Source: an uncultured Alphaproteobacteria bacterium
GTDB lineage: Bacteria > Pseudomonadota > Alphaproteobacteria > Rhizobiales > Beijerinckiaceae
Direction: 5' to 3'
Assembly: GCA_963713695.1 (NCBI GenBank)
Contig: CAVQMU010000002.1
Location: 564,041 to 628,040, forward strand
DNA: 64,000 nucleotides
Under the pieces are notes generated by a model. The model saw only the letters and a list, made by a program, of their open reading frames with translations, ran no database searches and had not been told where the DNA came from. This document shows positions 4,178 to 58,993 of this stretch, piece by piece. The position numbers and the translations under genes are program-made. Positions within the stretch are counted from its first letter, which is position 1, and each line of letters opens with the position of its first letter.

Positions 4178-4500
4178 GGGCTGCAGGTGAGCGTCCGAGT
4201 CGCGATCTGTATTATTTGCATGGATTTCCCGAAACAGTCCAGATAGTGTCGCCGAAATGAACGTTTCGAATGGTGCAACCATGCGTTTTGATCAATTTCT
4301 ATCCAAGAAATCAAAGAATAGAATCAATCGTCTTGTCGCAATTCCTCTTAAATCTGCCATTATAATATTCAAAGCCGTCCATGACGTTTTGATTAATCGA
4401 AACAACACGAAGGTGTCGTTCCAAAGGTTCAGCAACGGACGACAAAACGTCTTTATCTTGATCGCGTTGGTCATGAGCGGAAGGGTCGGATGCGCTGTCG

Positions 4501-5355
4501 GTGACGCTTATCGCGTTTACCAATGGCTGCCGTTCCGGATCTTTCTTGATCGGGTGCGAGTCGAGTCGGCGGCCGCAACCGGAAGAAATCCTGATTGTCA
4601 ATTACGATCAAAAGGCGGACGCAACATCTGGAAAACAGCGTGTTCTGCGGATATCAAATCTTTATTATACTGCGGAAAACAGCGAAAAGAGGCTGTTTTC
4701 TCCTTATTTTGCGCATCCTCAATTCTATCGTCGGCGGCTGCATGAGACCGTTGGGCGGATGAGGGATAAAAACAGGAACATAAGGATATTTTTCGCGGGA
4801 ACGAGAAGCAATGTATATTCGCGTTATTTCAAGTTCAATATGCTCAGCAGGGATAAGATAATCGACCGATTGCAAGCAAGATATGCGTCAACACTCAGCG
4901 CGGAGTCTTCGACCTTGGACAAGGCGCCATTCGTGATGGCCATGACCGAAGACACTCGCGACACCGTATCGAAGCACAAGCTCTCGATGGATTCGTATCT
5001 CGACGCCATGTCGCGTTCTGATTTTTTTATATGTCCGCCGGGGTTGCTGGTGCCCCACTCGCATAATATCGCGGAAGCGATGTCTGTCGGCACGATCCCG
5101 ATTACCAACTATCACGATTATATGCGCCCGAAGCTGACAGGCGGCCAGGACTGTCTCTCGTTCAATTCTCTGGAGGAGCTTGATGAGGCGGTCGACCGCG
5201 CGCTAGCGATGACTTCGGAAGAAGTCGAGCGTCTCCGCAAGAACGTGATTTCCTATTATAAAAAATACATGGATCCTGTAGCGTTCGGAGAAAAAATCAG
5301 GTCGTCCTCCAAGCTTGTCGAGGAAATAGTCGTCAACGACGAGTCTGGACTCTGA
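4501..5355 (+). CDS. exostosin/GT47-like glycosyltransferase (AT-rich, probably horizontally acquired)
   Basis: C-terminal motif SDFFICPPGLLVPHSHNIAEAMSVGTIPI resembles the exostosin GT47 signature (S.FCL.P.G…R..EA…GCIPV). The region 4200-5400 is conspicuously AT-rich against the GC-rich background. The start is uncertain. Confidence 0.6.
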   Translation: MTLIAFTNGCRSGSFLIGCESSRRPQPEEILIVNYDQKADATSGKQRVLRISNLYYTAENSEKRLFSPYFAHPQFYRRRLHETVGRMRDKNRNIRIFFAGTRSNVYSRYFKFNMLSRDKIIDRLQARYASTLSAESSTLDKAPFVMAMTEDTRDTVSKHKLSMDSYLDAMSRSDFFICPPGLLVPHSHNIAEAMSVGTIPITNYHDYMRPKLTGGQDCLSFNSLEELDEAVDRALAMTSEEVERLRKNVISYYKKYMDPVAFGEKIRSSSKLVEEIVVNDESGL

Positions 5356-5409
5356 CAGCGAATCCCGGCCGCAGCCGTTTTCCGGGCCCAAGTTCAACGC
5401 CGGTTGAAA

Positions 5410-6399
5410 TTACGCGGAGCGGATCGCGCCAATCGCATGGGGGCCATCGGAGTCCCTCAAGAGATTGTCGAAATAGGCGATGGTCTTGACCAAACCGTCG
5501 CGCAGCGGAACCGTCGGGCGCCAGTCGAGCACCTTTTCCGCTTTTTCAATGGTCGGTTGGCGTTGCTTCGGGTCATCCGAGGGCAGTGGCTGGAAAGCCA
5601 GGCGCGACCTGGAACCGGTGATTTCAATCACGAGTTCCGCCAATTCCTTGATCGTGAATTCCGTGGGATTGCCGATGTTGATCGGACCGGTCACTTCTGG
5701 GCCTGTCGCCATCATGCGGATTTTCGCTTCGATGAGGTCATCGACATAGCAGAACGAGCGCGTCTGGCCGCCGTCGCCAAAAAGGGTGATGTCTTCGCCC
5801 TTCAGCGCCTGGACGATGAAATTGGAGACGACGCGCCCGTCGCTTGGGTGCATGCGCGGTCCATAGGTGTTGAAGATGCGGACGACCTTGGCGGCGAGCT
5901 TGTGCTGCCGAATATAGTCGAAGACCAGGGTTTCCGCGCATCGTTTGCCCTCGTCGTAGCAGGCCCGGAAACCGATCGGATTGACGTTGCCCCAATATTC
6001 CTCCGGCTGCGGATGAACGCCCGGATCGCCGTAGACTTCCGACGTCGAGGCCTGCAGAAATTTAATGCGCAATCGTTTTGCCAGGCCCAGCATGTTGATC
6101 GCCCCGATGACGCTGGTCTTGGTCGTCTGCACGGGGTCATGCTGGTAGTGGATGGGCGAGGCCGGGCAGGCGAGGTTGTAGATTTCGTCCACTTCGACAT
6201 AGAGCGGAAACGTGACGTCGTGGCGCAAGAGCTCGAACGACTTGTGATCGAGCAGATGCGCGACGTTTCGCCGCGTGCCCGTGAAGAAATTGTCGACGCA
6301 GAGGACGTCGTGACCGGCGTCGAGCAGGCGCTCGCACAGGTGCGATCCGAGAAAGCCTGCGCCGCCAGTGACGAGAATTCGTTTATGCACGTCGGTCAC
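5410..6399 (-). CDS. uxs: UDP-glucuronate decarboxylase (UDP-xylose synthase, UXS)
   Basis: Collinear near-identity to eukaryotic and bacterial UXS1: [14 protein letters not shown]…VDNFFTG…YHLASPASP…[13 protein letters not shown]…IFNTYGPRM…DGRVVSNFI. Confidence 0.93.
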
Positions 6400-6527
6400 C
6401 CCGAGGAATGGCTGGATTGCAACCTGTCAAAGACATGGCCGCTTTTAACCTCGCCTTGTCCCCGAAGCAACGCGCCAGACAATGGCTGCGCTCTCGGCGC
6501 CGGGCCGAAATGCGGGGGCGGCAGTTT

Positions 6528-7778
6528 TCATTCCTGCAAATCCCACCAAATGTCCGGCTTCGAAGCCGGGCCGGAGCGCGCGCAAAGCGCATCCAACGCG
6601 GAACGAAATCGCTCCTCCGCCAGGTCGCCCTGCGAAATATTCAGAAAACTGTATGATTGTCCGCGCGCCCGCGCCAGAAGATAGAACCACGGCCGCAGAT
6701 GCTGTTCCTCAGGCAAGAAGCGATTGATTTCGAGAATTCTGAGCGAGGGCTTGCCGAAAACGAGATTGCTCAGGGCGGCGCCATGCGGCGCGATCACCGC
6801 CTGCGCATTATGGAAAAGTTCCGCCTGGCCAAGGAAATCGAGATCTTCAAGATGCACGGGTATAAACCCGCGGTTCCTTGCGTGGGTTTCGACAATGCTG
6901 ATCTCGCTTCCCTGGAGCCGTTGCGTGTCGCGCCTCTGGATCAGGATACGCGGCGGCGATGCCGGGTTGACGCGCAGCTTTTGCCGAATGGGATCATAAA
7001 GGCGATCATATTTCGCGACGCAGGGAAGGAGCGCCTTTTCCTGGCTGTCAATAAAAATCGAATGGACGCGGGGCGCTGTGTAGATTCCGGGCGGCAGTCG
7101 CACAATCTCGTCCGACAGGCCCGAAAGAACCAGCGACTGCTCCCATGTCCGTTCGCTGATGCCGGCTGACCAGACTTTGCTCTTGGGGCGGCGAAGGTCG
7201 GGCGTGGCAATGCGGAACGGCGGGCAACCGACGTGGCGCGCCATCAACATTTTCGGAAGCGCCAGACAAAGCCAATGATAATAATTGCCCCAGGCGTGGT
7301 CCACCCCGACAAAGACATCAAAGTCCAGGCGAACAGCTTGCGCGCGCAATGCGCCGAGGTCGGGGATCGGCAGCCGGTGATTTCGGAGCCGGGCGCTCTG
7401 TTCGACGGGATGCCCCAGCGAGTCCAGGAGCACTCCGTCCTGGCCGGGGCCTATCCAGAAATAGCCGTCGTTCAGGGTGTGGAAATTCAGCGTCAGTTCG
7501 CCTTGACCGGCATGGCGGTCAAGGAGGCGCTCGAGATCGGCAAAAGTCTGTCCCGCGTAGGCAGGCGCGACATGCGACTGCGGCGCAAAGGCGTCGCGCC
7601 AATTGGCGGTGGTTTCCAGCGGGTTAGTGGCGGAAAAAGTCGCGGCCGGATATGTTTGCGCTTTCCTGCGCCGAAACCAACGCGCCACGAACACCACTCC
7701 GGATTTCATTGGGAAAATTTCAAGCGTTTCGCCAATCCTATTGCATTGTTTAGGCGAAATGATCAACTTCCAGGTCAA
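6528..7778 (-). CDS. glycosyltransferase family 61 / DUF563 protein (xylosyl/GlcNAc-transferase-like)
   Basis: DUF563/GT61 signature HAWGNYYHWL and a C-terminal APHGAALSNLVF motif. The real start may be the internal Met near 7709. Confidence 0.75.
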   Translation of the reverse strand: MTWKLIISPKQCNRIGETLEIFPMKSGVVFVARWFRRRKAQTYPAATFSATNPLETTANWRDAFAPQSHVAPAYAGQTFADLERLLDRHAGQGELTLNFHTLNDGYFWIGPGQDGVLLDSLGHPVEQSARLRNHRLPIPDLGALRAQAVRLDFDVFVGVDHAWGNYYHWLCLALPKMLMARHVGCPPFRIATPDLRRPKSKVWSAGISERTWEQSLVLSGLSDEIVRLPPGIYTAPRVHSIFIDSQEKALLPCVAKYDRLYDPIRQKLRVNPASPPRILIQRRDTQRLQGSEISIVETHARNRGFIPVHLEDLDFLGQAELFHNAQAVIAPHGAALSNLVFGKPSLRILEINRFLPEEQHLRPWFYLLARARGQSYSFLNISQGDLAEERFRSALDALCARSGPASKPDIWWDLQE

Positions 7779-7835
7779 ATGTCGCGAACCCGGCTGCGCC
7801 GCCCCCGAACACGTTCGCCAGGCGCTTTGGCGAGG

Positions 7836-8816
7836 CTAGCGCCTGTTCACATAGTCAAAATTACATTTCTGGATCGTCCGCAGCGAGCCTGCCTGAGGCG
7901 GCCCGAGGGCGATCATTTTTTTGAACAGCGCCCTGTGCCTAGCCGAGAAGAGCGCTTTCACGCCGTAGGAAAAAACCTTCGTCAAATAAAATACGAAATA
8001 GTGGACGAATCCCCGATTTTTCCTGACGATATAAAGCAGTGAAATGTCCGATTCCAGCTTGATGATTTCCGGCTTCGCGAAGCTGGCCTGCCCGATGTGC
8101 CTGAAGCTCGCGCCGGAATAATAAACGGCCTTGTATCCGAGCGCTTTCAAGCGATAGCAGATGTCCATCTCCTCGTAGAACAGGAATATGTTCGGGTCGA
8201 ATCCGCCGGCGGCGGCCAGCGCTTCGAGACGAAACATCATGAAGCTGCCATAGACGAAATCGACGGTTACGGGCCGATCGTAAGTCGCCTTCGGGTCCGG
8301 CGGTCGCTGAGCGCTGAAACGGGAGCCGAGCCATCGTCCGAAAACCCGGCTCGCGAGCGTGTCGAATTCGCCAAACGACCGGCAAACCCGTCCGTTCATG
8401 TCCTTGTGCGTCGGCCCGGTCACGCCGACGTCGTCGTTGGCGTCCATATAGGCGACAAGCGGGGTGAAGGCGTCTTCATCGAACGAGGTGTCGCTGTTGA
8501 CGAAAGCGACATATTTGCCGGCGGAATAATTGAGGCCGAGCATGCATCCGAGCCCGAAACCCGCATTCAGGCAGTTGCGCGCCAGAATGAGCCTGTTGTT
8601 GGCCATGGCCCCGAGGCTGGCGCTCAGCGCTTCGAAATGCGCTGTCTCCGATCGGTTGTCGATGACGACGATTTCATAGGCCGTCGCCAGCGTCGACGCG
8701 GCGAATATCGCGACCAGGGATTTCACGCAATCGGCGGTAAGCTCCGGCGTGTTGAAATGAACGATGACGACGGTCAGAACCGGGCGGTCGCGATCGTCGA
8801 ATTTCTGGAAAAACAT
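7836..8816 (-). CDS. family-2 glycosyltransferase (GT-A fold)
   Basis: LTVVIVHFNTPELT…EIVVIDNRSE…NAGFG…YVAFVNSDT…; DxD-containing GT2 architecture. Confidence 0.85.
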   Translation of the reverse strand: MFFQKFDDRDRPVLTVVIVHFNTPELTADCVKSLVAIFAASTLATAYEIVVIDNRSETAHFEALSASLGAMANNRLILARNCLNAGFGLGCMLGLNYSAGKYVAFVNSDTSFDEDAFTPLVAYMDANDDVGVTGPTHKDMNGRVCRSFGEFDTLASRVFGRWLGSRFSAQRPPDPKATYDRPVTVDFVYGSFMMFRLEALAAAGGFDPNIFLFYEEMDICYRLKALGYKAVYYSGASFRHIGQASFAKPEIIKLESDISLLYIVRKNRGFVHYFVFYLTKVFSYGVKALFSARHRALFKKMIALGPPQAGSLRTIQKCNFDYVNRR

Positions 8817-22778: not shown

Positions 22779-22839
22779 TATCTGCTGGCGCCCGAAGGCA
22801 AAGGCCCCTAAATTGCGGTTGCGGCGCTGCGGGGTGCGT

Positions 22840-23110
22840 GAGGACATTTCCCCGGGGCCTTACGATCCCCTAGGGAGCTGTCCCTGTCTTGGTCCGTGGA
22901 CCTTGGCACATGGCGCCCACCTACTCTGTAGGTACCCGGGATCACGTCCCACGGCTTTTGTGGCCCGCACCCCCTCTCAGTTTCCCTTCTCCCCTTGCGG
23001 GAGAAGGTGGTCCGAAGGACCGGATGAGGGGACCTCGCGGCGCGTCCCCCTCATCCGTCTCGCCGCTGCGCGTCGATCCACCTTCTCCCGCGAGGGGAGA
23101 AGGGTTGCGC
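22840..23110. repeat. REP/MITE-like palindromic intergenic element (nested inverted repeats)
   Basis: CCTTCTCCCCTTGCGGGAGAAGGTGG … CCACCTTCTCCCGCGAGGGGAGAAGG and GGATGAGGGGAC … GTCCCCCTCATCC form nested palindromes. Such elements give spurious ORFs of the type …SPLAGEGGPKDRMRGP…, as in the listed ORFs 22889..23266 and the 5' part of 22813..23742. Confidence 0.5.
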
Positions 23111-26016: not shown

Positions 26017-26101
26017 CTGGCGTCGTGGCGCTGTCGTGGCGCATGCGGCCAGTTCGTCCTAACCTTCGGCAGATTTGGATCCTCGATCGGAGGCTGGGGA
26101 A

Positions 26102-26704
26102 ATGGCGATGCCCTTTAATGGCCGGCGTCTGCAAAAACTCCGCGCGGAACGCGCCTGGACGCAGGAGCAGTTGGCGGAAGTCTGCGGATTGAGCGCCCGG
26201 ACGATCCAGCGGCTTGAGCGCGGGGGCAGGGCGTCGCCCGAAACGGTCGGAACGATTGCCGCTGTGTCCGGGGTGGCCGTCGGCGAATTTCTGGTTGTGG
26301 CCAGGCCCCGAATGAAGTTCGGAATCCGCCGGATTACGCCCATGACCGTTCTGGACGAGATAAATTCGGCGGTCGCCGATTATCTTTCGCTGGGATTTGC
26401 CTTGATCGAAACCGGAGATCGCGGTTGCCTGGGGTTGCGGGCGGGGGAGGGCGGCATCATTTTCGCCAGCGCCGATTTTCTGCGCGGCGATTTCGAGGAA
26501 ACCGCCGTCTCCCGCTTCGTTGGACGGACCATCCCCTATCTCCATGTCGGCTGTGTCGACGGCGCGGAAATGCGGCTGCCGCCGTCCGCACGCGTCGTCC
26601 AGAAGGTTGTAACGCGCGGCGCGACCAAGGAAATGCTGGTCGAACAGGACGGCCGTTACTCGATTTTCGCGGAGAAAATCGCCGCAGAGGGCGCGCCCGC
26701 TTGA
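26102..26704 (+). CDS. XRE-family HTH regulator with a C-terminal VOC/glyoxalase-like domain
   Basis: HTH LRAERAWTQEQLAEVCGLSARTIQRLERG. The C-terminal half resembles the VOC fold (…YLSLGFALIETGDRGCLGLRAGEGGIIFA…). Confidence 0.65.
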   Translation: MAMPFNGRRLQKLRAERAWTQEQLAEVCGLSARTIQRLERGGRASPETVGTIAAVSGVAVGEFLVVARPRMKFGIRRITPMTVLDEINSAVADYLSLGFALIETGDRGCLGLRAGEGGIIFASADFLRGDFEETAVSRFVGRTIPYLHVGCVDGAEMRLPPSARVVQKVVTRGATKEMLVEQDGRYSIFAEKIAAEGAPA

Positions 26705-26719
26705 ACGCCCAGGCGCTGC

Positions 26720-26962
26720 TCAGCCCCGCTTTCGTCGAAACTCCCGGCGGCGGGGAAGCAGGCTGAACTCTCCGCAGTAGCGGCACAGCAGCGCGGGGTC
26801 GCCGGTCATCGAGCCCGGATCGAAGGCGATCAGAATTGTGTAGTCGCAATGGCCGCAGGCATAGTCGTCGCTCCCCGGCAAATTCAATCTGTCGGCGCCG
26901 ATCAGCTTCACCTTGGCGTCAGCGTCTACCTGGCTGATCGGCAACATTTTTATCCGCGCCAT
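26720..26962 (-). CDS. small (80 aa) CxxC…CxxC zinc-ribbon-like hypothetical protein
   Basis: …DYACGHCDYTILIAFDPGSMTGDPALLCRYCGEF… Lies divergent from the MCP-PilZ gene. Coding status is uncertain. Confidence 0.4.
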   Translation of the reverse strand: MARIKMLPISQVDADAKVKLIGADRLNLPGSDDYACGHCDYTILIAFDPGSMTGDPALLCRYCGEFSLLPRRREFRRKRG

Positions 26963-27250
26963 ACCTAAACGCCTCCGCTTTCCTTAACTCAGGTTCCTTA
27001 CGATCGGCGGAAGGGGAAGTTTCGAACATGCACTGTTGAGACGCGAATGGGGGAGCCATGCCTGCGATGTTGTTGGCGCATCGTAATATAAGCTTACCTA
27101 ACGTAAGCATGTATCAATAGAAATAAGGTATGTTGCGCGATAAGACAACAAAATAATGTAAAAATACCCGTAAATTCATAATTCGTTAACCAATACTTGT
27201 TAAAAACATGGTGTAATTTTGCTTTTGACCACTTTGTCGGACATTCAGGC

Positions 27251-29242
27251 ATGAATTTAACATTGCGCAGCGCGGGGCTCGCGGCCATTTCCGTCCTGCT
27301 TGCGGCGAGCGCGGGAACCATGGCCATTTCATTCTGGGCGAAGGGCGCGGCGCTGGAGCGGGCCGTCGCCGTCTCGAAGATCAATGCGCAGACACGCGAA
27401 GTGGTGATGCCTCTTGTCACGCTGATCAAGGACTTGCAGATCGATGTCGTGCAGGTCCAGCAGTTCCTGACCGACACTTCGGCGACGCGTGGTCTTGACG
27501 GTCTTGACGACGGTGTTGGCGAAGCCGCGAAGTTCGCCGAAAAGTTCGGCAAGGACGCAGAAGAGGCGCGCAAATTGGCCACCCGGCTTGGCGACGGAGA
27601 ATTGAAGGCCGGACTGGACCGGACGATCGAGGCTTTCCCGGCATATTACGCCATGGGGCGCAAGATGACGGAAGCCTATGTCGCGGAGGGGCCGGCCGGC
27701 GGCAACAAGCTGATGAGCGGCTTCGACAAGGTCGCCGACGCGCTTTCGGGCGAACTGGAAAAAGTGGTGAAACGGCGCGACGCCATTGTCGACGAAAGCG
27801 CCCAGCGAAGTCGCGATGACCTGAGCGAACTGGAGGGCACGATGTCGCGCGCCTCCAATCTCACCATTCTCGCCAATATGCTTTCGCTGGTTGTCCTGGG
27901 AATCGCGGCCGTCGGGCTGTTGAGGCGGGTCATCGGGCCGGTGCTGGAAATGGCCGGCTTTCTCGAAAATCTTGCTGAGGGCCATCTCGAAATGACGACG
28001 CGTCTGGGCGAGGGACAAGATGAAATTGGCCGCATGGCGCGCGCCGCCGACGTATTTCGCGAGAACGCCGTCGAGCGCGAGAGGCTTGAGGAGACCGCGC
28101 GAACCGAGCGCCAGACCGAGTTGCAGCGTCAGGCGCGGCTGGAGGAATTGATCGCGCAGTTCCGCACCGTGATCGGCGAGATCGTCATGTCCGTGGGCGC
28201 GGAGGCGGAGACCATGAGCGGCACGGCGAGCAAGCTCAACGACGTCGCTTTCCGCGCCGAACGAACGGCGGATTCCGCTCGCGTTGCGGCTGAGGAATCC
28301 TCGCACAACATCCGCGCCGTCTCCGTCGCGGCCGAGCAATTGAGCGCTTCGATCACCGAGATTTCGCAACAGATTCGCGGCGCCGGCGAAAAGGCCAGCG
28401 AGGCCACCGGCATCGCCCGCCGCACCGACGTGAATATTTCGAGCCTGGTCGAACTGGCCGGCAAGGTGGAGGCTATCGTCGCCTTGATCCGGGGCATCGC
28501 CCAGCAAACCAATCTCCTGGCGCTCAACGCCACCATCGAGGCGGCGCGCGCCGGCGATGCGGGCAAGGGATTCGCTGTAGTGGCGTCTGAAGTGAAGATG
28601 CTCGCCGGCCAGACCGCCAAGGCGACGGATGAGATCGCCGCGCAGGTCGCTGCGATCCAGCACGCCACCCAGGGCGCCGTCGAGGATCTGCGGGCAATCG
28701 CCAGCGCCGTGGCCGAAATCGACGAAATGACGAATGCGGTTGTTGCGTCGGTCGCGCAGCAGAGCGAGGCCACCGGCGAAATCGCCAGCTCGATCTCGCG
28801 CGCGTCGGACAGTTCCAGCACGGCTTCGCAAAATGTCGCCAGCGTCGCCCTGGTGATCGGCGAAACCAATTCCGAGGCTGGTCGCGTCACGACCGCCACG
28901 GGGCTCCTGTCGGGATCGGCGAAGCAATTGGCGGAGGCGGTCGAAAAATTCCTGCGCGACGTGACCCAGGATGTGAAAAACCGCCGCGCCGCCACGCGCC
29001 GGCTTTCGACCGAGGGCGTGGTGATTTTCACCAATGGGCTGCGCGCAAAAACCAAATTGATTGATATTTCGGATACGGGCGCCAAGCTGATCGCCCCCGA
29101 GGCATTGCGGAACGGCGACAGCTTCGTGATGGAATTCGAGGACGAGAGCAGGGCGCAGGCGCGCGTGGTCTGGTTGCGTGAAGGATTCGCCGGCGCGCAG
29201 TTCGATGTACCGCTGGGCGCGCGAGGCGACCAGGCTGCGTGA
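27251..29242 (+). CDS. methyl-accepting chemotaxis protein with a C-terminal PilZ (c-di-GMP-binding) domain
   Basis: N-terminal TM and sensor region, HAMP, MCP signalling domain (…[37 protein letters not shown]…). C-terminus has PilZ motifs RRAATRR (RxxxR) and DISDTG (DxSxxG). AT-rich promoter region 27090-27250 upstream. Confidence 0.9.
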
Positions 29243-29412
29243 TGTTGCGCAGCTCGCCCCGGGGCGAAGGGCGGAGCGACGGGACCGCGCGGGCGGGGCG
29301 GTTTCATCTGACTGTCATATATAGCTTTTAGACCTTCCCTAAGGTCATGACGCGGTCCGGCCATCTGACCTCGCCAATCGTGATCGCAATCGCGCAGACT
29401 TCAGGGATTCTC

Positions 29413-30878
29413 ATGCCGTATCGCTCTTCCGCGCTGAAAGGCGCGCTTTTGATGTCTGTGGCCCTGGCAACTCCGTCGCTCGCCGACACGACGCCCTTCG
29501 CTTTCACCACCGGCGATCTCGTCATCAGCACGGTGGCCGGAACGACGCTCGACACGGCATCGCCGATCACGCTCGATGAATTCAGCCTCAACAGCGCGGG
29601 AACCTCGGCATCCCCCGACGGAACCCTGGCTTTGCCGCAGACGGCGAGCGGCGCCAATTCGGCGATTTCAGGCGAATATGGTTCGGCCTCCGAGGGCTTT
29701 TTGCAGCTTTCCGGCAATGGACAGCTCCTCTCCATCGTTGGCTATGGCGTCAACGCCAGCGCGTTCAACTCCGCGGCGTTGGCGACCTACGGCACGACTG
29801 CGCTTGGCCAGACCACGAGCCTGCTCGCCAATCAGCAGACGGGCGCGATCTATACGACCGTGCCGCGCGTCGTCGCCCTGATCAACGGCACGGGCAATGT
29901 CGATACGACGACCGCTCTGACCGGCGTGTTCAACACCAACAATCCGCGCAGCGCCTATACCGTCGATGGCTCGACCATCTATGTGTCGGGCCAGGGCGCG
30001 TCCAAGACCGACACGACGCAGGGCGTATTCGTGACGACGCGCGGCTCGACCACGGCTACGGCGATTGACACGTCCTCGGACACCCGTTTTGTCACCGGAT
30101 ACAACGGAACGCTTTATGTTTCGCGCGACCAAGCCCCTCCGGGACAGGCGCTGTCAACAATGTCACGAATGTCAGCAGCCTGACCAATGGTTCAGGCAGC
30201 ATGCCGACGTCTTCGGCGGGATTGATCACGACGCATATCACGCCGCCCGCATCGCCCTATTCCAGCGGCGCCAACAACGGCTCGATCAATCTGACGGCGG
30301 CGCTGGCGAACGGTGTCAACAATGCCCGTATCGGCAGCTTCGTTTATTTGAGCCCGGAAGAATACTTCTTCGCCAATCCGACGACGCTTTACGTCGCCGA
30401 CAGCGGCCAGCCCAAGAACGGCAATGTCAACAAGGCGGGGCTCGGCGAAGGCGGATTGCAGAAATGGTCGCTGATCGGCGGCGTCTGGACGCTCGACTAC
30501 GACCTCGTTTCGGGCCTCAATCTCGTCAACAACGCCAATGCTAACGCCGCTACGCCGACGGCGCCGGGCGTCACTGGCCTGTTCGGCCTGACCGGCAAGG
30601 TCGTCAACGGCCAAGTCGAACTCTTCGCCACGAGCTACGGCCTGAACGAATTGTCGCCGAGCTATCTCTACGAGATCACCGACAATCTCTCGGCTGTCAC
30701 CATTGCCAACGGCGAAAGCTTCACGACGCTCTATTCCGCGCCCTCCGATGTTTCGATCCGCGGCGTTTCCTTCGCGCCGTCCGTCCCGGAACCCTCGACC
30801 TGGTTGATGATGCTGATGGGCTTTGCGGGCCTCGGCTTTGCCTCCTATCGCAAGGCGCAGTCCCAGTCCGCAGTCTGA
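29413..30878 (+). CDS. PEP-CTERM-anchored secreted protein (Thr/Gly/Asn-rich); reading frame interrupted by a 1-nt indel near 30131-30137
   Basis: Signal peptide MPYRSSALKGALLMSVALATPSLA. C-terminus …VPEPSTWLMMLMGFAGLGFASYRKAQ is the PEP-CTERM sorting motif. ORF 29347..30183 (frame 1) and ORF 30201..30878 (frame 0) join if one base is restored in the CCCC run at 30134-30137, giving …YVSRDQAPSGTGAVNNVTNVSS…. Confidence 0.7.
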
Positions 30879-30898
30879 TACTGAAGACCTCGCCAACA

Positions 30899-30926
30899 AA
30901 AGGCCGCCGTGGGGCGGCTTTTTCTT
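30899..30926 (+). terminator. rho-independent terminator after the PEP-CTERM gene
   Basis: AGGCCGCC-GTGG-GGCGGCTT followed by TTTTCTTTATTT. Confidence 0.55.
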
Positions 30927-31084
30927 TATTTGGCTTGCAAGCAACGTTTCCGCGTAAATCGCTTCAACGTTTGTCAAGGATAGCCAATAAAAATCCGGCT
31001 TCTAGCTTGGACGCCGCCTTGCCGTCCCGGCGCCCCTGCGGCAGACTGTCGAGGCAATTGCGCATTATCCGGGATTGACTGCAA

Positions 31085-32917
31085 ATGGATTATATTCTTG
31101 TCGCGGCCCTGCTGATTGCCGCCGCCCTGCTGGCGCCGCGTTTTCTTCGCCCCGATCTGCCTAAACGCGACCTTGTCGTCTCGGGATTGCGGGTCATTCT
31201 CGGCCTTGGCGCGCTCGTCGCCATACTCGCGACCAGCGTCGTCACCGTTCCCGCCGACCGCGTCGGCATCGTCAAAAAGCTTTACGGCTTTTCGAACCTG
31301 CCGGAGGGCCGCCTGATCGCCGTCAACGGCGAGACGGGCTACCAGGCGCCGATCATTCCGCCGGGCACATGGCGCATTTCGCTCCTGTTCAACCTGTTCA
31401 ACAGCATCGAAACCGTGCCGCTTGTGGTGGTGCCCAACGGTTTTTACGGGCGCATCGTGTCGCGCGACGGAGCGCCGCTGGGCGATAGCCAGATCATGGC
31501 CGACGCATGGCCCGAAGCGGAGTTCTCCAATTTTCTCAATGCCGAGTATTTCCTGACCCATGGGGGCCAGAAAGGCTTGCAGCTCAGCGTGCTGAAGCCC
31601 GGCGCCTATGCCGTCAATCTCGCCTTGTTTGAAGTGCGCGTCGGCTATCGTCCCAATGACCGCGACATTACCAAGTCGACCGACGATGTCTTCGACATTC
31701 ACGGCATGCATCAGGAGTCGACCCCGCTTACGACCGAGATCACTCATGTTCCCGCGGGATCGGTTGGCGTGGTGCGGTCCTCGGTGGAGGAGAAAGGCAA
31801 GAATTGCCAGCCGATCAAGGCCAAGGCAGATTCTGACGGCCTCGTCGCCGAACTCGTGCCGCCGGGCTGCAAGGGGGTCTGGAACGCCTCGCTGCCGCCA
31901 AACGATTATTATCTCAATCGTGACGCCAACGAGGTGGTGATCGTCTCGACGCGCGTCACGACGATCGAGTTCAAAGGCGGCTATGACCGACGCTACATCG
32001 ACCTGAAGGTGGATGGAAAGGGCGACTTCGCCCAGACCGAACACACGGCGCATTTTCTTGATATCGGCGACGACCGGGCGATCAACACCAAGGTCGAGGG
32101 ATGGGAAATCCCCCAGGAACTGCGAGCCGTCGTGCAGATATCGCCGGAGCACGCGCCCATCGTTGTCGCCGCCGTCGGCGGCCAGACGGAAGTCGACCAG
32201 CGCATCGTCATCCCCTCGATTCGCAGTCACGTGCGCAATGTCTTCGGCGGCTTGGTGACGGTGGCCGGCGATCCCGCCAAGGGCGAGCCGGCGACAGTCA
32301 CCCGCCCGACGCGCGTGCTCGACACGGTGGAGCAGCGTCCGGCGCTGGAAGAATCGATCCTCAAGCTGGCGCGCGAGGACGGGCGACGCGCGGGCGTCGA
32401 CATCAAGGAAATACGCCTGGGCGAAAGCGCCATTCCGCCCGAACTGCTGCTGGCGCGCCAGCGAGAACAGCTGGCGATCCAGCTGAAGGCCGCCTTCATC
32501 CAGGAACAGGCGGCGCAGACGCAGAGGCAACAGACGGAACAGGCGCGCGCCACGGCCGAACAGCAGTCTGAACTGGTCAAGGCGCAGATCGCCGTGCAGA
32601 CGGCCAGGCTTTTGCAGGAGCGGCGGCAGGCCGAAGGCCATGGCGAAAGGCTGTTCCTCGAAGAGCAGGCGGCGGGCCAGACCGCGCAGGCCAATGTGCT
32701 TGGAAAGGACAATGTGCTGAAGTTGCAGATGTTCAACCGGTCGCTCGAGTTGCTTGGCGCGCACCCGGAGCTGGTGTCCAATCTTGTCCTGCCGAAGTTT
32801 TATGTCAGCGGCGGCGGCGGGTTGGAAGGCGCTGCGGCCATCTTCGGCGGGTTGATGTCGGGAACGGCGCAGAACGGCGCGAGCGCGACGCAGGACAAGC
32901 CGGCGCAAGCAAGGTAA
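31085..32917 (+). CDS. SPFH/band-7 (flotillin-like) membrane protein with a long C-terminal coiled coil
   Basis: N-terminal TM, SPFH core, then a Q/A/E-rich coiled coil (…LAIQLKAAFIQEQAAQTQRQQTEQARATAEQQSELVKAQIAVQTARLLQE…). Confidence 0.8.
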   Translation: MDYILVAALLIAAALLAPRFLRPDLPKRDLVVSGLRVILGLGALVAILATSVVTVPADRVGIVKKLYGFSNLPEGRLIAVNGETGYQAPIIPPGTWRISLLFNLFNSIETVPLVVVPNGFYGRIVSRDGAPLGDSQIMADAWPEAEFSNFLNAEYFLTHGGQKGLQLSVLKPGAYAVNLALFEVRVGYRPNDRDITKSTDDVFDIHGMHQESTPLTTEITHVPAGSVGVVRSSVEEKGKNCQPIKAKADSDGLVAELVPPGCKGVWNASLPPNDYYLNRDANEVVIVSTRVTTIEFKGGYDRRYIDLKVDGKGDFAQTEHTAHFLDIGDDRAINTKVEGWEIPQELRAVVQISPEHAPIVVAAVGGQTEVDQRIVIPSIRSHVRNVFGGLVTVAGDPAKGEPATVTRPTRVLDTVEQRPALEESILKLAREDGRRAGVDIKEIRLGESAIPPELLLARQREQLAIQLKAAFIQEQAAQTQRQQTEQARATAEQQSELVKAQIAVQTARLLQERRQAEGHGERLFLEEQAAGQTAQANVLGKDNVLKLQMFNRSLELLGAHPELVSNLVLPKFYVSGGGGLEGAAAIFGGLMSGTAQNGASATQDKPAQAR

Positions 32918-32928
32918 GCGCGTTCGCC

Positions 32929-33343
32929 TTATCGCGCTTCCATGGCCGCCAGCATGGCCGCCATTTTCTCATGGACGACCTGGATAGCCTTGAGCGGACG
33001 CAGCATGACCTTGAAACGGTCGATGCGTCCGTCCGGGTTCCAGCCGATGATATCCACGCCATTGACCTCGATCGAACCGATCCGCGTCGAAAACTCCAGC
33101 ACGGCGGAGGTTTCCCCGATCCATTCGCCGATATAGCGAAATTCGTCGCCCGACAGGACATGCAGCGCCGCATCGAGATAGAGTTCTCGTTTTGGCGCGG
33201 CCGACCTGCGGCGTATGCACGACGGGCGAATGGAAGGTCACGTCCTCGGCCAGCAGATCGTCGAGCGCCGCGGCATCGCGCGTTGCGACGATCTCATGCC
33301 AACGTTGCAAGGCGGGAGGTCGGTGTCGGTTTGCATCGCTCAT
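32929..33343 (-). pseudogene. NTF2/SnoaL-like small protein with an apparent 1-nt frameshift in an AAAA run (about 33188-33191 on the minus-strand sense)
   Basis: N-part MSDANRHRPPALQRWHEIVATRDAAALDDLLAEDVTFHSPVVHTPQ (frame A) continues as …KRELYLDAALHVLSGDEFRYIGEWIGETSAVLEFSTRIGSIEVNGVDIIGWNPDGRIDRFKVMLRPLKAIQVVHEKMAAMLAAMEAR in frame B. Removing one A from GCCAAAACGAG restores a single 138-aa ORF. Confidence 0.6.
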
Positions 33344-47478: not shown

Positions 47479-50400
47479 TTAAACGAACTTGAATTGCGAG
47501 GCGACCAGGCTCGACATCTGAACATTCGTCAGGGTGACGCTATCGGACGCGTCGAGCGAGATCATAGTATTCGCGCCGGACTGATGCATGTGGCTCGAAC
47601 TCGAAAGCACGGACCAACTGGAAAAATCCGATTTGCTGAACTGGATGGTGTCAGACGCCACAAAGTCATTGACGGCGTTCACGCCGATGGCCGGCTGAAA
47701 CACGAGCGCGTCCGACGTTCCAAACAGCGACAGCGAGTTTGAGCCGTACAGGTCCAAAGTGTCGCCGGCGCCGGTCACCGAGGCCTGGGCGCTGTTCACG
47801 TAGATCGTTCCGTTCGATGCGCCGACCGAATCCCAGGCGCCGCCCGTATTGTAGAGGGCCAGCGCGTCGCTGGAATTGCCGTCCAGCGTGATCGTATCGC
47901 CGCCGCCGGAGACCGAGGTCTGCGCGCCATTGATGTAGACGGCGCTGTTCGAACCGATGACCGAGTCCCAGTTTCCGCCTGTTCCGTAAAGGCTCACGGC
48001 AATGCCCGAACCGCTGGCGAAATAGACGGCGTCGCCGCCGCCCTGGATCGCCGTCTGCGCGCTGTTCAGATAGATTGCGCCCTTCGATCCATAGACCCAG
48101 TCCCAGCTTCCACCGGTGTTGTAGAGGCTTGCGGCATTGCCAGTGCCGCCGGCGAAATAAGCCTTTTCGCCGCCGCCATAGATCGCGGCCTGCGCGCCGG
48201 TCAGATAGATGGTTCCGCCGCTTGCATAGACAGTGTCCCAAATCCCCTGGCTGTAGTAGAGGCTCAAATCGTTATTTGAACCGCTGCTGAAGGCGATGGC
48301 GTCGCCGCCGCCCTGGACCGCAGCCTGTGCGCTGTTCAGATAGACCGATCCGTCGGACCCATAGACCCAGTCCCAGTTTCCGCCGGTATTGTAGAGCCCC
48401 GCAGCATTGCCGGAGCCGCTTGAGAAATTGATTGTTTCGCCCCCGCCTTGGACCGCGGCCTGCGCGCTGTTCAGATAGACGGTTCCATTTGTTGCGTAGA
48501 CCCAGTCCCAATTGCCGCCGGTGGTGTAGAGGCTCGCCGCATTGCTCGCGCCGGAGACGAAAACGATGACGTCGCCGCCGCCCTGGATCGCCGCCTGCGC
48601 GCCGTTCAGATAGACATCGCCATTCGAGCCATAGACCCAGTCCCAGTTTCCGCCGGTGTTGTAGAGGCTGGCTGCATCGCCCGAACCGCCGGCCAGATAG
48701 ACGGTGTCGCCGCCGCCATACACTGTGGCTTGGGCGCCATCGAGTTTGACGACGCCGCCGGAGCCGTTCACCTGATCCCAGTCGCCAGAGGTATTGTTGA
48801 GGTTCGCAAGGTCTCCCGAGGCGTTGGGGAAGTTCACGGTCACTCCGCCGCCGTTATCGGTGACGGCCGCGCCTGCCGCGTAGAGATTGATATCGGTTCC
48901 GCCCTGGCCGTCGGAGGAAAGGATGAAGTTCAGGCCTGCGTAATTGACGGTCGGATCGAGATTCACCTCGTAGGTCGCGCCATTGGCGACAATTTCGAGG
49001 ACATTTCCGGCGAGCAAGGTCGCGGAGCCGATTCCGTTGTACGCCACGCCGCGGAGATCGATCGTTTGCTGCACGGCCAGGGTGAAGCCAGCGACGACGT
49101 TCGTCGGCATGGCCGTCCCGTCGATCTGCAGCGTGGTCAGGCCGCCCCTGAAGGTGACGTCGCCGCTACCCTCGGACTGCGGCGTGGCAAGCTCCAGCGT
49201 GCCCAGCTCGATCGTCACGCCGCCGGTGAAAGTGTTTTGCGCGTCGAGCGTCAGCACGCCGGCGCCGTCGAGGGTCAGGCTTCCAGAGCCGGTCTGGCCG
49301 CTGGCGTCCTTTGACCCGGTCATGTCGGTTATGACATCGGAAATGGTTTCCGTCTGGCCGGCCGCGGGGGCGAAGACGATATTCTGATTGCCCTGGAGGA
49401 AAATGCCGGAGCCATAGGCCTGGCCATTGCCGCTGCCAGTGTTGCCCAGTCCGGCTGTGACCGAGCCTCCGGATAAGGAGCCGCCGTCAACAGTCAGCGC
49501 CGCGCCGCCCTGGACAAAAATACCGCCGCCCGCGCCGAGGCCGCCGCCGCCGCCTTTGCCCTCGCCGGAAGAGCCGCCGCCGAAGCCGCCAGAGACGGTT
49601 CCGGACGATGTGGCGCTGGCGCCGGCGCCGCCTCCGAAGCCGCCCACGCCGCCGCTGTTCCAAAAACTTCCGCCGCCGCCGCCGCCGAAACCTCCAGCGC
49701 CGCCGCCGACGGAGGAGCCGTTGACATAGCCGCCTAGCGTGCCCCCGCCGCCGCCGCCGAAGCCGCCAGCGCCTCCACCCGTGGCTCCATTGGCGCCGTC
49801 AACGCCACCGCCGCCCCCGCTGCCGCCCCCGCCGGCGCCCCCAGCGCCTCCCGAGGCGCCTCCCGCGGTATAACCGGATCCGCCTCCTGACGCTCCCGCC
49901 ACGATACCGGCCGCGGAGGGCGATCCACCGGATGACGCGTTCGCGTCAATGCCTCCGCCTCCGCTATCTGCGCCCCCATTGCCGCCCAAACCGCCGCCGC
50001 CGCCAAAATTGGCGATTCCGCTTCCAACGCCGCCTCCGGCTCCGCCGACGGCAGAATCGGCGCTGAAGACGACGCTGTCGAGCGTCACATTGGCCGGCGC
50101 AGCGCCGTCGGCGGAATCATTCGCCACGAACAATCCGCCGCCAAGGCCAGCGCCGCCGCCTCCGCTTGCTCCATTTGTCGAATTATCGCCGGAACCGCCC
50201 GCGCCGCCGACCGCCGCCGCGTTCGAAGATCGTCAAATTTTCAATGGTGACATTGCCTGAATAGACAAAAAATCCGCGAAAGGCGCCGGCGCCATTCAGG
50301 GTCGCGCCTGCGCCATTGATGGTCAGCGTGTCCCCGCCCTTGAGATTGATGGCTTCGAGATCGGCGGCTTCCGTCAGCGTCGCCCCGGCGCTGAGGGTAA

Positions 50401-51865
50401 GCGAGTAATGCACGCCCGAACTGTTTCCTGCTTGCGAGGCGAGATCGACCGCCTTGATGTCGGCGCTGAGCGCCGCGGCGGACGAAACGTTGGCGATGGA
50501 ATCCGATGTCGAAGCGCTCAGCGTCACCGCGATATTGTTCGTTGCCGGCGTGTCGCCGCCGGCGTCGGTCGTCGTCACGCTGATCGTGTCGGTTCCGGAA
50601 TAAAACAGGTTGGCCTGATAGGTCGCCGTCGCCAGCGCCGCGTCGATCGCCGCGACGGTCCCGGCGATCTTCATGTCTCCCGTGCCCGCGCCCGTGATCG
50701 TGGCCGCCCCGGCGGCCCCTACGTTGAAGGAACCGTCTGCGGCCTTGAGTTCGGTCGTCAGCTGCGTCTCCTGAAACAGCGCGCCGAGCGTCGAACTGAC
50801 GGAAACCGTTGGGGCGCCCAGCGACATCGCGCTGTTCCAGCCGCCGCTCAGCGAGGTCGTGGAAAGCATTTGCGAAATCGTGTTGACGAAGGAATAGCCG
50901 AGGACGTTCATCTCCTCGAGATCGGCCTGCGAAATGGCGCCTACCTTGCCGTCATAGGCTGTGCCATAGGAATCGCCTTTGAGGGAATCGGTCCAGTCCG
51001 CAACATCCTCGCCCTGCGCCACCTGCGCGGGCGTATCATAGGGGAGGGTGACGGTCGTGCCGTTATAAGAGAAATAGGAATAGGCGTTGGAGTTGTAATT
51101 GGCGACGAAGGGCTCGTCGAGGGCGCCGGCCGCCGAACCGGGCGCGGCATTGGTCGACCCGCCGGCCGCCGTATAATGGTAAAAATCGAGCAGCGTGTAC
51201 TGGTTGTCCACGCCGAGTTCATCGGTACGGCCGAGAACCTCCGAGATTTCGTGTTCCAACAGGCCAACCGCGTCGTAAGTTCCCCCGGCGATGCTCGATT
51301 GCGACCAGCTGTAACTGAGGGCGCTGCTCAAGCCGACATAGCCGTCAACCGAGACGCCATATGTGGAAAGCCCCAAAACCTTTGCTTCGGCGGTATTGAC
51401 GACAAACGTGCCGGCTCCATTGGTCGGATCGGTCGCGGGCAGGAGAGCCGCAGCGGTCGTCTGAACTGAGGATGTCGTGTCGGTCGCCTGTGCCGCCGCG
51501 AGAAGCTGTTGATATGAATATGTTCCAGTATTGAAGTCGCTCTCGCCGGCGTCCGACGCGTCGACGGGCTGTCCTTCGATTTCGCCATAACTGAAGGTTA
51601 TATTGACGGTGATCGGGTTGGCGATGAGTTGGTCGTAATATTTTACCGCGGCAGCGACGGCAGCCTCGTATTGCGCCTGCAACGTCGGGCTGAGGGAAGT
51701 GACGCTCGAATCGTAGGTGGCGTTGATGATCATGCGGGCGTTTCCGTTGGACGGCGGGAAGGCTTGGCCGGGCGGGACAGGGCTTTTCCGAAAAATAGAG
51801 TGAAGCGACGGCGACGAAGGCGAATAATCAGCAGGATGACCAGCGACAGGCTTGGCTGGAATCAC
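47479..51865 (-). CDS. giant (~1,450 aa) secreted glycine-rich repeat protein with PATR-type (autotransporter-associated beta-strand) repeats and ~9 tandem 33-aa C-terminal repeats; interrupted by a 1-nt frameshift near 50200-50225
   Basis: ORF 50183..51865 (N-terminal domain; probable ATG at 51733, MIINATYD…) and ORF 47479..50133 are the same gene in different frames. Shifting by one base after …ENLTIFE gives …AAAVGGAGGSGDNSTNGASGGGGAGLGGGLFVANDS… PATR motif …GSGSLTLDGAGVLTLDAQNTFTGGVTIELGTLELAT… Repeats SLYNTGGNWDWVYGSNGDVYLNGAQAAIQGGGD occur 9 times. No signal peptide. C-terminus …LVASQFKFV. Confidence 0.7.
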
Positions 51866-52473
51866 CCTTCAATAGGTTCTACATTAAAGAAAGCGGAGGC
51901 GGCTTGGCAATCTCATGCTTTGCCGCTGGGATTTCCCGCCCACAAAACGGCTGGTCTCCAGGTGGAGGCGGGGCCGCATCAGGCGACGGTTTTGAGCGGA
52001 CCTCTGCAAATGTTCCGACTAGCGATTGACCGCTAGAATTTTCGCGAGCGCGAAGTCGGCGAGGTGATGGGTCGCCTGACCGTTGCCGGGCAGCCACCAG
52101 TACAACGCTTCGGCTCCGGTTAGCCCATATGTGGAACTCAGAACGCCCTTGGCTCGGTCAGTGATGACAGGAATGACGAAATCGACTCGCGGCGGCGACG
52201 CGCCGATCATTTTTAATGTCGCGCAAACGCGCAAAGCAAAAGCAAACGCGTTCACGAATTTTTGGACGCCAAAACAAGAGCGAGAATTTTGTAGCTATAA
52301 CAATGTTCTGCCTTGTGTGTCGTTCGAGGCGCCCGATTCGCAAGATTAATTTTTAATACGGTCTTGGGCGCGTTTCTGATAGATTTCCCAGCTGTTTTGT
52401 TGGGCTACCCGACGACAGGGCGCTCAGCCTGGCAGCCTGGCGATCATCGGTCAGACGAACTGGGGCCGCAGCG

Positions 52474-55400
52474 ATGGATATCGAGGCGTGGCTAAGGGGT
52501 TTGGGCCTTGGCCAGTATGTCGCGACGTTTCGCGATTTTGCGGTTGACGCCGACATATTGCCGGACTTGAGCGACGCCGATCTCGAAAAGCTTGGTCTTC
52601 CGCTCGGCCACCGCAAACGCCTGCTCAAAGCGATCGCCGGCCTCGACGTGGCAAGCGCGGCGCCCGCCTCGACCGTCTCGATGTCGACGACTGGGGCCGC
52701 CGCCGACGCCGAGCGCCGGAATATCGCCGTGCTGTTTTGCGATCTCGTCGGTTCGACCGGCGTCGCCGCGCGTCTCGATGCCGAGGAATGGCGCGACATA
52801 GAGAACGCCTATCTGGATGCGGCGAGCAAGGCGGTGACCGATTTCGGCGGGCGGGTCGCCAAGAAACTCGGCGACGGTTTGATGGCGCTGTTCGGCTATC
52901 CGACGGCGCAGGAGAATGACGCCGAGCGCGCGGCGCGCGCCGCGTTGGCGATTCAGCGCGATCTCGCCAAACTGAATGCGGCCAATGCGGATGCGGGCAG
53001 GCCCCGGCTAGCAGTGCGCATCGGCATTGCCTCGGGCCTTGTGGTGGTCGACGCCGCGGGTGAGATATTTGGCGATGCGCCAAATATTGCAGCGCGCGTG
53101 CAAGCGGTGGCCGAGCCAGGATCTGTTCTGACGACAGCCGCCATGCAGTGCCAATTGGCAGGCCTGTTTGTCGTGGAGGACCTTGGCGCGCACGAACTCA
53201 AAGGCGTCGCCGGCCCGATGGCGCTCTATCGGCTGGTGCGCCAAAGCGGTGCGGGACGGCGGCTTGCGGCGCGGGCGTTGACGCCTATGGTCGGGCGCGA
53301 GGACGAGATGGCCGCGCTCGCCCGACGCTGGGCGCTCGCGCGACGCGGCGAAGGGCAATTGCTGCTCATTGTCGGGGAGCCCGGTCTCGGCAAATCGCGC
53401 CTGTTGGAGGAGTTTCGCCGCACGCTGAGCGGAACGCCCCACACGTGGGTTGAATGGAACTGCTCGCAACTTTTGCAAAACACAGCGCTGCATCCAGTCG
53501 TCGAATGGGGACGCCAGCGTTTTAGCGCCGACGATTCTCCCGAGCGAAGGCTTGCCGATCTTGAGGCGACGCTGACGCTGCTCAATCTCGATCCCTCCGA
53601 GCATCTGCCGCTGCTCGCGCCCCTCGTCGACATTCCCTTGCCGTCGGAACGGGCGCTGGAGGGGTTGTCGCCTGCCGAATTCCGGCGCAAACAGCTCGGC
53701 GCGCTGATGGCTTGGGTGATGGCGGGAGCGCGGGCGCAGCCGGTCGTTCTCGCCTGCGAGGACCTGCACTGGTCGGATCCGACCACGCTTGAGCTCTTGC
53801 GCGGTCTTGCCGAACGCGGCGGCGATGCCCCGCTGCTCATCCTCGCCACGGCACGGCCGGAGTTCCGGTCGTCGTGGAGCATCCGCGCGCATCATGGCGC
53901 GCTGGGGTTGGCCCCGCTTGACGCGGAAGAAGTCAAACGAATGGTCGGGCAAATCGCCGCCCGCCATGCATTGTCGCGTCAAACCATCGACGGCGTGGCC
54001 GCGCGCGCCGGAGGCGTGCCGCTGTTTGTCGAGGAGGTGACGCGGCTGCTGCTGGAGCGCCATGACACGGGCGACATACAGGCGATACCGCCGACCTTGC
54101 AGCAATCCCTGGCGGCGCGGCTCGACCGGTTGGGGCCGGCGCGCGAGATTGCGCAAGTCGCCGCGGTGATCGGGCGCGCGTTTTCTTACGCGCTGCTGCG
54201 GGCGGTGGCGTGCGCTGGAGATGCTGAGCTCTGCGAGGGTTTGGAGCGCCTGACGGAGGCGGGCCTCATCCACGTCCATGGCCAGCCGCCGGACGCGGAT
54301 TATCGCTTCAAACATGCGCTGATCCGCGATGCGGCCTATGAAGGTCTTCTGAAAAGCCGTCGTCAGGCGCTGCACGCTCGCATCGCCGAGAACTTGCGCG
54401 ACCGTTTTCCCGAGCGCGCCGAAGCCGAACCGGAGTTCCTCGCCGGCCACTTCACGCAGGGGGGGCTTTTGGAGCCTGCGATCGACGCCTGGACCAAGGC
54501 AGGCGAACAAGCCGCTCGGCGCTCGGCAATCACCGAGGCGGTCGCACATTTCGAAAAGGCGATCAATATCGCCGACGCCCTGCCTGATCGCCGTGAGCGA
54601 AGGCTTGACCGGCTGCGCTTGCAGGTCGCTTACGGCAACGTGCTCATTCCAGCGCGTGGACATGGCGCGGTGGAGACGACCGCGGCGTTTGTCCGAGCGA
54701 GGGAGCTCATCACTGAGAATACGGAATTGTCGGAGACGTTCTCGATCTATTATGGGTTGTGGACTGGCCATTTTGTTCGCGGCGAACTTGAGCCGATGAA
54801 GACGACTGCGGCAGAACTCCTGCTCGCAACCGAGGCAGGGAGCGAATCCGCTGCCGCCGGCATCGCACATCGAATGTCTGGCGTCACATACTGGTCCGCC
54901 GGGGAATTTTCACTCGCCAGAACCTTCCTCGATCGCGCTCTCACCATGATCGGGCCAGAGATTGACAAGGTGTCGATGCTTGCCTTCGGACAAGAGCCGG
55001 GCGTCAGCGTCCTGGCTTATCTTTCACTGACCAATTGGCCGCTTGGAAACGTCGCGCGTGCTATCGCTCGCGCTGACGAAGCTGTCGAACGCGCAACAGT
55101 TAGCGGACATGTTGCGACGATCGCTTACTCAGTTTGGCATCGGCTCCTTTTGGACCTGATGCAGCGGCGCGACGATCTCGCAATTGACGGTGCGAAGGCT
55201 TTAATCGAGATCAGCGAAAAGTACGAACTGCGACAGTGGCGAATAGCAGGCATCTTCTTTGATGGGTGGACACGATGGCGCCGGGACTCCCAAGTGGACG
55301 GCATCGAAGCGATGAAACGCGGTGTGGCCCTTGTCCGCGAGCAATCCGCTCACAATACCTCGCCTATCTATGCAATCCTTCACGCGGAGGCGCTTTGCGA

Positions 55401-58660: not shown

Positions 58661-58993
58661 TCGACGAGGGCTCGTCAGCTTTATGAGCTACGATCTCGGC
58701 TTCGTCGATCTGGAGCAGAAAACTTTGCAGACCCTCGACAACCCGTTCGGCGCGAGGTTGTCACCTATGTCTTAGGTACGTTCTGTCAGCGATGTGTCCG
58801 GTATGGACACACAAGATAGATGGCGGAGAGGGAGTCCGCGAAACCATAGTCCACGGCGTGTTTCTGGCGTTCTCTAAGTCGAGCCAAAATCAGGCATTGT
58901 AGAGCTTTTGTGTCTTCCGTTGTCCACGAATATCCACTACAATCCACGTCAGAAAGTGGGGCCGTAAGTGGGGCCACTAGATCAGGTGAACGG

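Follow-up and report, generated by a model that had tools for sequence, protein, structure and literature searches.

A PEP-CTERM gene with a single frame break and a predicted, widely conserved propeller body

Two consecutive open frames at 29413-30878 (+) of the window (the whole 64-kb stretch of DNA analysed here) make up one PEP-CTERM gene whose reading frame is broken once. We put at roughly 85% the probability that this locus belongs, as the local ortholog, to a widespread and strongly conserved family of ~490-aa secreted proteins with a Sec-type signal peptide, a propeller body of the six-bladed type and a sorting tail of PEPxxWA flavour, disrupted in this copy by one frame break. Its domain identity, fold class, orthology and synteny are established here, as are the single break and the lack of decay downstream of it. 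This kind of gene is itself already known; the sole and mildly new point is that its body, an unnamed propeller module, is conserved to an unusual degree.

Gene layout, homologs and synteny

The first frame runs from an ATG at 29413 to a stop codon at 30181-30183 (257 codons), and the second, offset by 1 base, is open from 30069 to a TGA at 30876-30878. By translation, the upstream coding part, 29413-30144 (+), comprises the signal peptide and ~3.5 propeller blades, and the downstream part, 30145-30878 (+), supplies the remaining blades, the PEP-CTERM tail and the TGA in the other frame; the frame-repaired protein is 487-488 aa in length. A Shine-Dalgarno-like AGGGA, read directly from the sequence, lies at 29403-29407 (+), 5 nt ahead of the ATG. 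The start codon and a signal-peptide-like N-terminus (MPYRSSALKGALLMSVALATPSLA, followed by DTTP) occupy 29413-29484 (+): judged by eye, this leader has a basic n-region, a hydrophobic core and an SLA motif directly followed by D (SLA/D). M1 of the window protein aligns with the start Met of 11 homologs. At the other end of the gene, 20 nt 3' of the stop codon, a terminator scan found an intrinsic-terminator-like hairpin with a T-run at 30898-30933 (+), consisting of 11 pairs (6 G-C) and a T-rich tail; the PEP-CTERM gene is probably a single-gene unit with its own terminator. Upstream of the gene, no sigma-70-like promoter site was found, nor any acceptable match to a sigma-54 -24/-12 motif of the Haft type.

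A large protein collection yielded 1549 homologs of the repaired protein. The best 120 of these are single proteins of ~470-580 aa that are 66-78% identical to it and span both halves, and their alignment is continuous through the frame junction. A YVSRD motif is present in 110 of the best 120, and 109 of those also have a downstream TNV motif; the spacing between the two is exactly 11 residues in all 109 informative homologs. The closest informative relative, an intact ortholog of 484 aa (P0011), occupies the same chromosomal position in Rhodoblastus sp. metagenome-assembled genomes (MAGs). The window and Rhodoblastus MAGs share the order dnaG, rpoD, 5-formyltetrahydrofolate (5-FTHF) cyclo-ligase, YmdB and YebC upstream of the gene and, downstream, acetyl-CoA synthetase (ACS) on the other strand, GT87, purE and purK. 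These neighbours are mostly 82-93% identical to their Rhodoblastus counterparts (61% for 5-FTHF cyclo-ligase and 69-70% for GT87). The shared gene order and the neighbour identities therefore place the window in a relative of Rhodoblastus and identify its PEP-CTERM locus as the ortholog of the intact Rhodoblastus gene, to which its downstream part is 79.7% identical. Since the homologs are single chains and the syntenic ortholog is intact, we conclude that there is one gene with one frame break, as the initial annotation had proposed.

Proteins labelled by NCBI as "PEP-CTERM sorting domain-containing protein" from Rhodoblastus, Bradyrhizobium, Telmatospirillum and Thiobacillaceae (P0011, P0042, P0056 and P0090) have the same length class and architecture, with 68-74% identity to the window protein over the whole length. 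All four are intact, whereas the window copy is broken. It also differs from its relatives in having Ala for the usual Asn before the Pro-Pro-Gly discussed below, and PEPSTWL for PEPSTWA in its tail. Cultivable organisms that carry an intact homolog include Roseiarcus fermentans DSM 24875, Lichenifustis flavocetrariae and Bradyrhizobium. When neighbouring genes were clustered across 36 homolog loci, no recurrent partner emerged. The Bradyrhizobium copy has a second PEP-CTERM gene nearby, together with AlgF, AlgI and AlgX-like (polysaccharide acetylation) genes, and is the only locus so placed.

Sorting tail, propeller body and proposed function

The peptide at the C-terminus of the second frame is VPEPSTWLMMLMGFAGLGFASYRK, and the tail written to the stop codon is VPEPSTWLMMLMGFAGLGFASYRKAQSQSAV. 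A PEP motif at 30786-30794 is followed by a hydrophobic helix and then by Arg-Lys, the order of elements in the definition of Haft et al. 2006 (PMC1569441): PEP, a hydrophobic membrane-spanning stretch and a basic cluster at the extreme C-terminus, in a protein with an N-terminal leader. The sorting domain model PF07589 matches residues 457-481 of the repaired protein (30780-30854, +) with 29.5 bits against a curated cut-off of 20.7, and TIGR02595 matches the same protein with 22 bits against a cut-off of 16. The reading of this tail as a PEP-CTERM sorting signal is thus confirmed by two models above their curated cut-offs. AF2 predicts a helix over it, at residues 463-487, and a six-frame scan of the 64-kb window found exactly one PEP-CTERM-like tail.

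The model for the PEPxxWA-CTERM variant, NF035944, scores 33.5 bits, just below its cut-off of 35, because Leu replaces Ala (PEPSTWL in place of the family's PEPSTWA); by this measure the tail lies outside the variant. Tails of the family have the consensus VPEPSTWAMM..GFAGLG, and NF035944 matches 30 of 51 members at E<=0.01. The propeller family therefore appears to sit near the PEPxxWA variant, with the window copy falling just short of it.

The window gene resembles members of the PEP-CTERM/exosortase system (PMC1569441) in its C-terminal signal a few residues before the stop, its signal-peptide-like leader, the absence of a Pfam domain from its body and its apparent single-gene organization. 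Unlike them, it has a broken frame, no exosortase or second PEP-CTERM gene within 64 kb and no sigma-54-type motif. PEP-CTERM proteins have been characterised as highly diverse; Haft et al. 2006 (PMC1569441) give a median of eight per genome. By comparison with PEP-CTERM proteins generally, the body of the window family is unusually conserved, with ~70% identity across classes (Alpha-, Beta- and Gammaproteobacteria) and 48% identity in an acidobacterium.

The body itself comprises residues 25-456 (~430 aa), with invariant residues in the stretches SGEYGS.SEG, NNPRS, GQGASKTD, ADSGQPKNGN and GEGGLQKW. Its composition (Thr 13.9%, Gly 11.8%, Ser 11.3%, Ala 10.6% and Asn 8.1%) agrees with the earlier description of a Thr/Gly/Asn-rich body. 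The same description had called the body repetitive and likened it to those of EPS-associated PEP-CTERM proteins, and neither point held: self-BLAST detected no internal sequence repeat, the coding body proved free of tandem repeats by TRF (which reported just a trivial 6-nt array at 30856-30875), and the body is instead predicted to be a conserved, globular beta-propeller. An AF2 model built from 51 sequences (pTM 0.79, mean pLDDT 75) is all-beta, with a low-confidence helix at residues 6-18, ahead of the conserved body, and low-confidence loops at residues 281-300 and around the break (248-250). In this model the break falls within a propeller blade, after ~3.5 blades, in the loop at residues 248-250. 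The predicted structure superposes on known six-bladed propellers and has the six-bladed fold. Sequence identity to such propellers (nidogen and LDLR/LRP YWTD, TolB, NHL and SMP-30/gluconolactonase-like) is only 8-14%, and the window body is larger than theirs (~430 aa), with long low-confidence inserts.

At the level of sequence, no Pfam or NCBIfam model matches the body at E<=1 (Ldl_recept_b, NHL, SGL and TolB included), and a PDB profile search with the body returned only a spurious match (E 0.44). Among 51 family members, only models of PEP-CTERM-tail families match, and in the window copy these matches lie within the last ~65 residues. In an exhaustive profile search, 2234 cluster representatives passed E<=1e-3, and 253 of them also passed E<=1e-30. 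The propeller module is also found inside proteins of 1000-3000 aa (P0243-P0264), and five of the six such large proteins that were scanned with Pfam have Hint_2, fn3 or Big-like domains.

With the flocculation protein PepA and other low-complexity, EPS-associated PEP-CTERM proteins (NF033554; PMC9850573), the window protein has in common the sorting tail and presumed delivery to the matrix. NF033554 matches 8 of the 51 family members, but the window-type body is globular and without sequence repeats. Judging from the pattern of the other PEP-CTERM models (match positions were not reported for this one), the NF033554 match probably reflects the shared tail. Neither body repeats nor PepA homology outside the tail was found, the features by which a protein of the repetitive EPS-matrix class would be recognised. 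The lack of sequence repeats, the all-beta model and the wide conservation together indicate a conserved extracellular propeller module rather than a low-complexity matrix protein. As it has no domain model, this conserved body could serve to define a new family.

Exosortase dependence and surface delivery of the intact protein would follow from published work on this system. Under the PEP-CTERM/EpsH sorting model of Haft et al. 2006 (PMC1569441), the leader would direct Sec export, and the C-terminal helix and Arg-Lys pair would anchor the exported chain in the inner membrane, its PEP motif facing the periplasm. An exosortase would then recognise the PEP motif, cleave at it and pass the propeller to the outer surface or the exopolysaccharide matrix; abstracts of later papers describe cleavage of PEP-CTERM by the exosortases XrtA and XrtB. 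As written in the window, the locus is non-functional, since leader and tail are on different polypeptides (the ORF from ATG 30201 encodes 225 aa with the tail and without a leader) and the propeller is cut after ~3.5 blades.

No Exosortase_EpsH Pfam match was obtained among the window ORFs submitted to Pfam. A search for the motif order Cys-x-Gly ... Asn-x-x-Arg ... His-x-x-x-Gly of exosortases (EpsH/Xrt, 8 TM) combined with hydrophobicity gave no candidate in the window or in 47 further loci, and the two window ORFs that pass a 5-segment hydrophobicity screen are GT87 and an AI-2E transporter. A tblastn search of plasmids for an exosortase produced only a weak Nostoc calcium-binding match, and a literature search found no link of exosortase to Rhodoblastus or its relatives. 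That an exosortase is encoded elsewhere in the genome is a reasonable expectation from published co-occurrence. The earlier assertion that it "must be encoded elsewhere" is too strong, as one species has PEP-CTERM domains without an EpsH homolog (Haft et al. 2006, PMC1569441). Without a Pfam or NCBIfam model and without a conserved neighbour, the molecular function of the propeller is a guess. One less likely proposal is that the body may represent a distinct, as yet unnamed extracellular family that acts as a specific enzyme or ligand binder within the exopolysaccharide matrix of bacteria from soil and peat, and that the clean breaks described below would then be traces of a genuine loss of surface proteins still under way in this lineage.

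Position and nature of the frame break

Because the two frames overlap over 30069-30183, the break was placed by homology. Profile scores, homolog DNA and homolog peptides confine it to a zone at 30134-30158 (+), in which a net 1 base is missing or 2 are extra, and which contains the runs CCCC (30134-30137) and GGG (30141-30143). The upstream frame reads SRDQAPPG (...LYVSRDQAPPG), close to the family consensus SRDxNPPGSG. Pro-Pro-Gly is present at this position in ~85% of homologs (Pro-Ser-Gly in ~9%) and is encoded by 30136-30144 in the window, and the window DNA CCTCCGGG is identical to homolog locus L008 in the upstream frame. The conservation of Pro-Pro-Gly and the identity to L008 argue that the upstream frame is valid through 30144 and that the lesion lies 3' of the CCCC run.

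Every possible repair was scored against a profile of 120 homologs. Removal of 2 nt at 30144-30146 (junction PPGGAV) scores 847.1 bits, addition of one base in or next to the GGG run at 30141-30143 (junction PPGTG) 844.5 bits, and addition of one C to the CCCC run at 30134-30137 (junction PSGTG) 842.1 bits. Taking out 2 nt brings back the canonical 11-residue spacing with a single event. Either +1 repair gives the window copy one more junction residue than its relatives, an arrangement found in 0 of 109 homologs. The gaps among the three scores are small (2-5 bits), and homopolymer slippage is mechanistically easier than a 2-nt insertion. The initial annotation had located the break in the CCCC run. 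That run does lie at 30134-30137, and adding one C to it does yield an uninterrupted 488-aa protein, but as a break site it gives the lowest-scoring of the three repairs compared. On these scores and alignments, the break appears to be bounded only to about 30134-30158, with the CCCC run not the favoured site. A search of species-representative genomes for the exact DNA pattern spanning the break gave no match.

The window contains a second gene with a comparable lesion. Two minus-strand ORFs, 50183-51868 and 47479-50232, correspond to a single gene in relatives (47479-51868). ORF 50183-51868 has an N-terminal domain that is labelled, at the source of one homolog (P0204, Rhodoblastus sp.), as an NF038122-family metalloprotease; ORF 47479-50232, which follows this metalloprotease-type ORF, encodes a Gly-rich repeat protein. 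The homologs P0238 and P0233 align continuously over the junction (...NVTIENLTIQNAVASGG...), and removal of one base near 50221-50230 restores the frame.

Compared with the Rhodoblastus ortholog, the PEP-CTERM gene has a dN/dS of 0.29 in the part before the break and 0.19 in the part after it, and carries no additional lesion; both halves of the gene thus appear to be still under purifying selection. This selection on both halves and the lack of a second lesion leave two possibilities, a break of very recent date or an artefact of assembly. The first of these, a genuine frameshift carried by the cells or by the population's dominant strain, would make this a young pseudogene and entail loss of the surface protein; in our judgement it has about an even chance of being correct. 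It is favoured by where the breaks fall: both are in long secreted proteins (the PEP-CTERM gene and the metalloprotease/repeat protein at 47479-51868), and dispensable surface proteins are typical targets of gene loss. The two broken genes make up ~10% of the coding sequence, such that two uniformly distributed errors would hit both with a probability of ~1% (an estimate from coordinates). In the same window, dnaG, rpoD, carA, panB, lgt, ACS, purE, purK, YmdB, GT87 and others give complete Pfam matches. Rhodoblastus orthologs offered a length check for four genes: YmdB (270 aa) and GT87 (419 aa) are equally long in both, and ACS and purK are longer in the window at an uncertain start codon. 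Extreme recency would nonetheless be needed, given that no second lesion is present and downstream dN/dS is not raised (0.19), and, for a free-living bacterium, two fresh single-event breaks within 64 kb amount to a high density. That same density speaks for an indel error in sequencing, polishing or assembly, possibly arising at strain differences in a mixed population, in which case the full-length protein is made. We regard such an error as a serious candidate with somewhat less than an even chance. Nothing but the single break mars the two halves, which are under equal constraint, the break zone contains the short homopolymers CCCC and GGG, and the second clean single-event break is only 20 kb away. 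The only exact database match to a window protein, P0121 (100% identical to a window ORF), comes from an NCBI/ENA assembly, and several related loci are on MAG contigs of long-read type, which may bear on how the window was assembled. Against an error, the runs are short (4 and 3 bases), the second break (at ATCTTCGAAC) is without a long homopolymer, roughly 50 other genes in the window have no break, and errors would need to favour genes for surface proteins. The location of both breaks in secreted proteins (~10% of coding sequence) points either to real loss or to consensus problems at strain-variable genes.

Two further explanations were considered and rejected. Programmed -1 ribosomal frameshifting or a phase-variable homopolymer switch would make the break a matter of deliberate decoding, and a -1 shift of the ribosome would indeed restore the frame in a zone that contains homopolymer runs. 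However, over about 30127-30150 the upstream frame lacks an X XXY YYZ slippery heptamer, the junction is in one frame in 109 of 109 informative homologs, and contingency loci use tracts of about 7 or more, far longer than runs of 3-4 nt, all of which makes deliberate decoding highly improbable. The idea that the locus holds two real genes, for a secreted N-terminal protein and a separate PEP-CTERM protein, draws on the ATG at 30201, from which a product carrying the tail could be made. This product has no signal peptide and no exact match on record, the split would fall inside a propeller blade of the AF2 model, and the homologs continue across the junction; contradicted by the homolog alignment, the idea has next to no probability. 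The locus is accordingly best annotated as one disrupted PEP-CTERM gene (intact if reads correct it) and not as two hypothetical proteins. With two clean breaks in secreted proteins per 64 kb, the assembly needs an indel check before conclusions about gene loss are drawn.

Other features of the window

ARAGORN found no tRNA genes in the 64-kb window. A 6S RNA at 22821-22969 (+) scores 54.5 bits with Rfam RF00013, above the cut-off of 46.4; the gene for 5-formyltetrahydrofolate cyclo-ligase comes immediately after it, in the classic ssrS-ygfA arrangement. Because of this RNA, a long ORF listed from 22813 must begin too early.

Set against the syntenic locus of a Rhodoblastus MAG (L046), the PEP-CTERM gene of the window is flanked on each side by additional genes, at 26075-29242 and 31085-33237. 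The first group consists of an HTH regulator and a chemoreceptor with PilZ as its C-terminal domain (27197-29242), and the second of a 103-aa ORF and a 610-aa protein (31085-32917) that has a hydrophobic N-terminal segment and matches nothing in Pfam. Hint_2, one of the domains found with the propeller module in large proteins, is also the commonest partner in relatives of the metalloprotease-type N-terminal domain of the second broken gene.

A sugar-modifying cluster at 4477-8816, ~20 kb upstream of the PEP-CTERM gene, encodes a GT47/RXYLT1-like protein, an NAD-dependent epimerase/dehydratase, GT61 and GT2, and may be a polysaccharide or LPS locus. At 58910-61625, a phage-type integrase is apparently split by an IS256/Mutator-family transposase: the Arm-DNA-binding part of the integrase is at 58910-59476 (+), the transposase at 59346-60572 (-), and the central and catalytic domains of the integrase at 60687-61625 (+). 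The split integrase is followed by an AAA_25 protein from 62709. The large protein encoded at 52474-55764 (+) combines SAM, adenylate/guanylate cyclase and AAA_16 domains; its gene adjoins that of a Crp-family cNMP-binding regulator at 57025-57735 (+), and the two look like a cyclic-nucleotide signalling pair.
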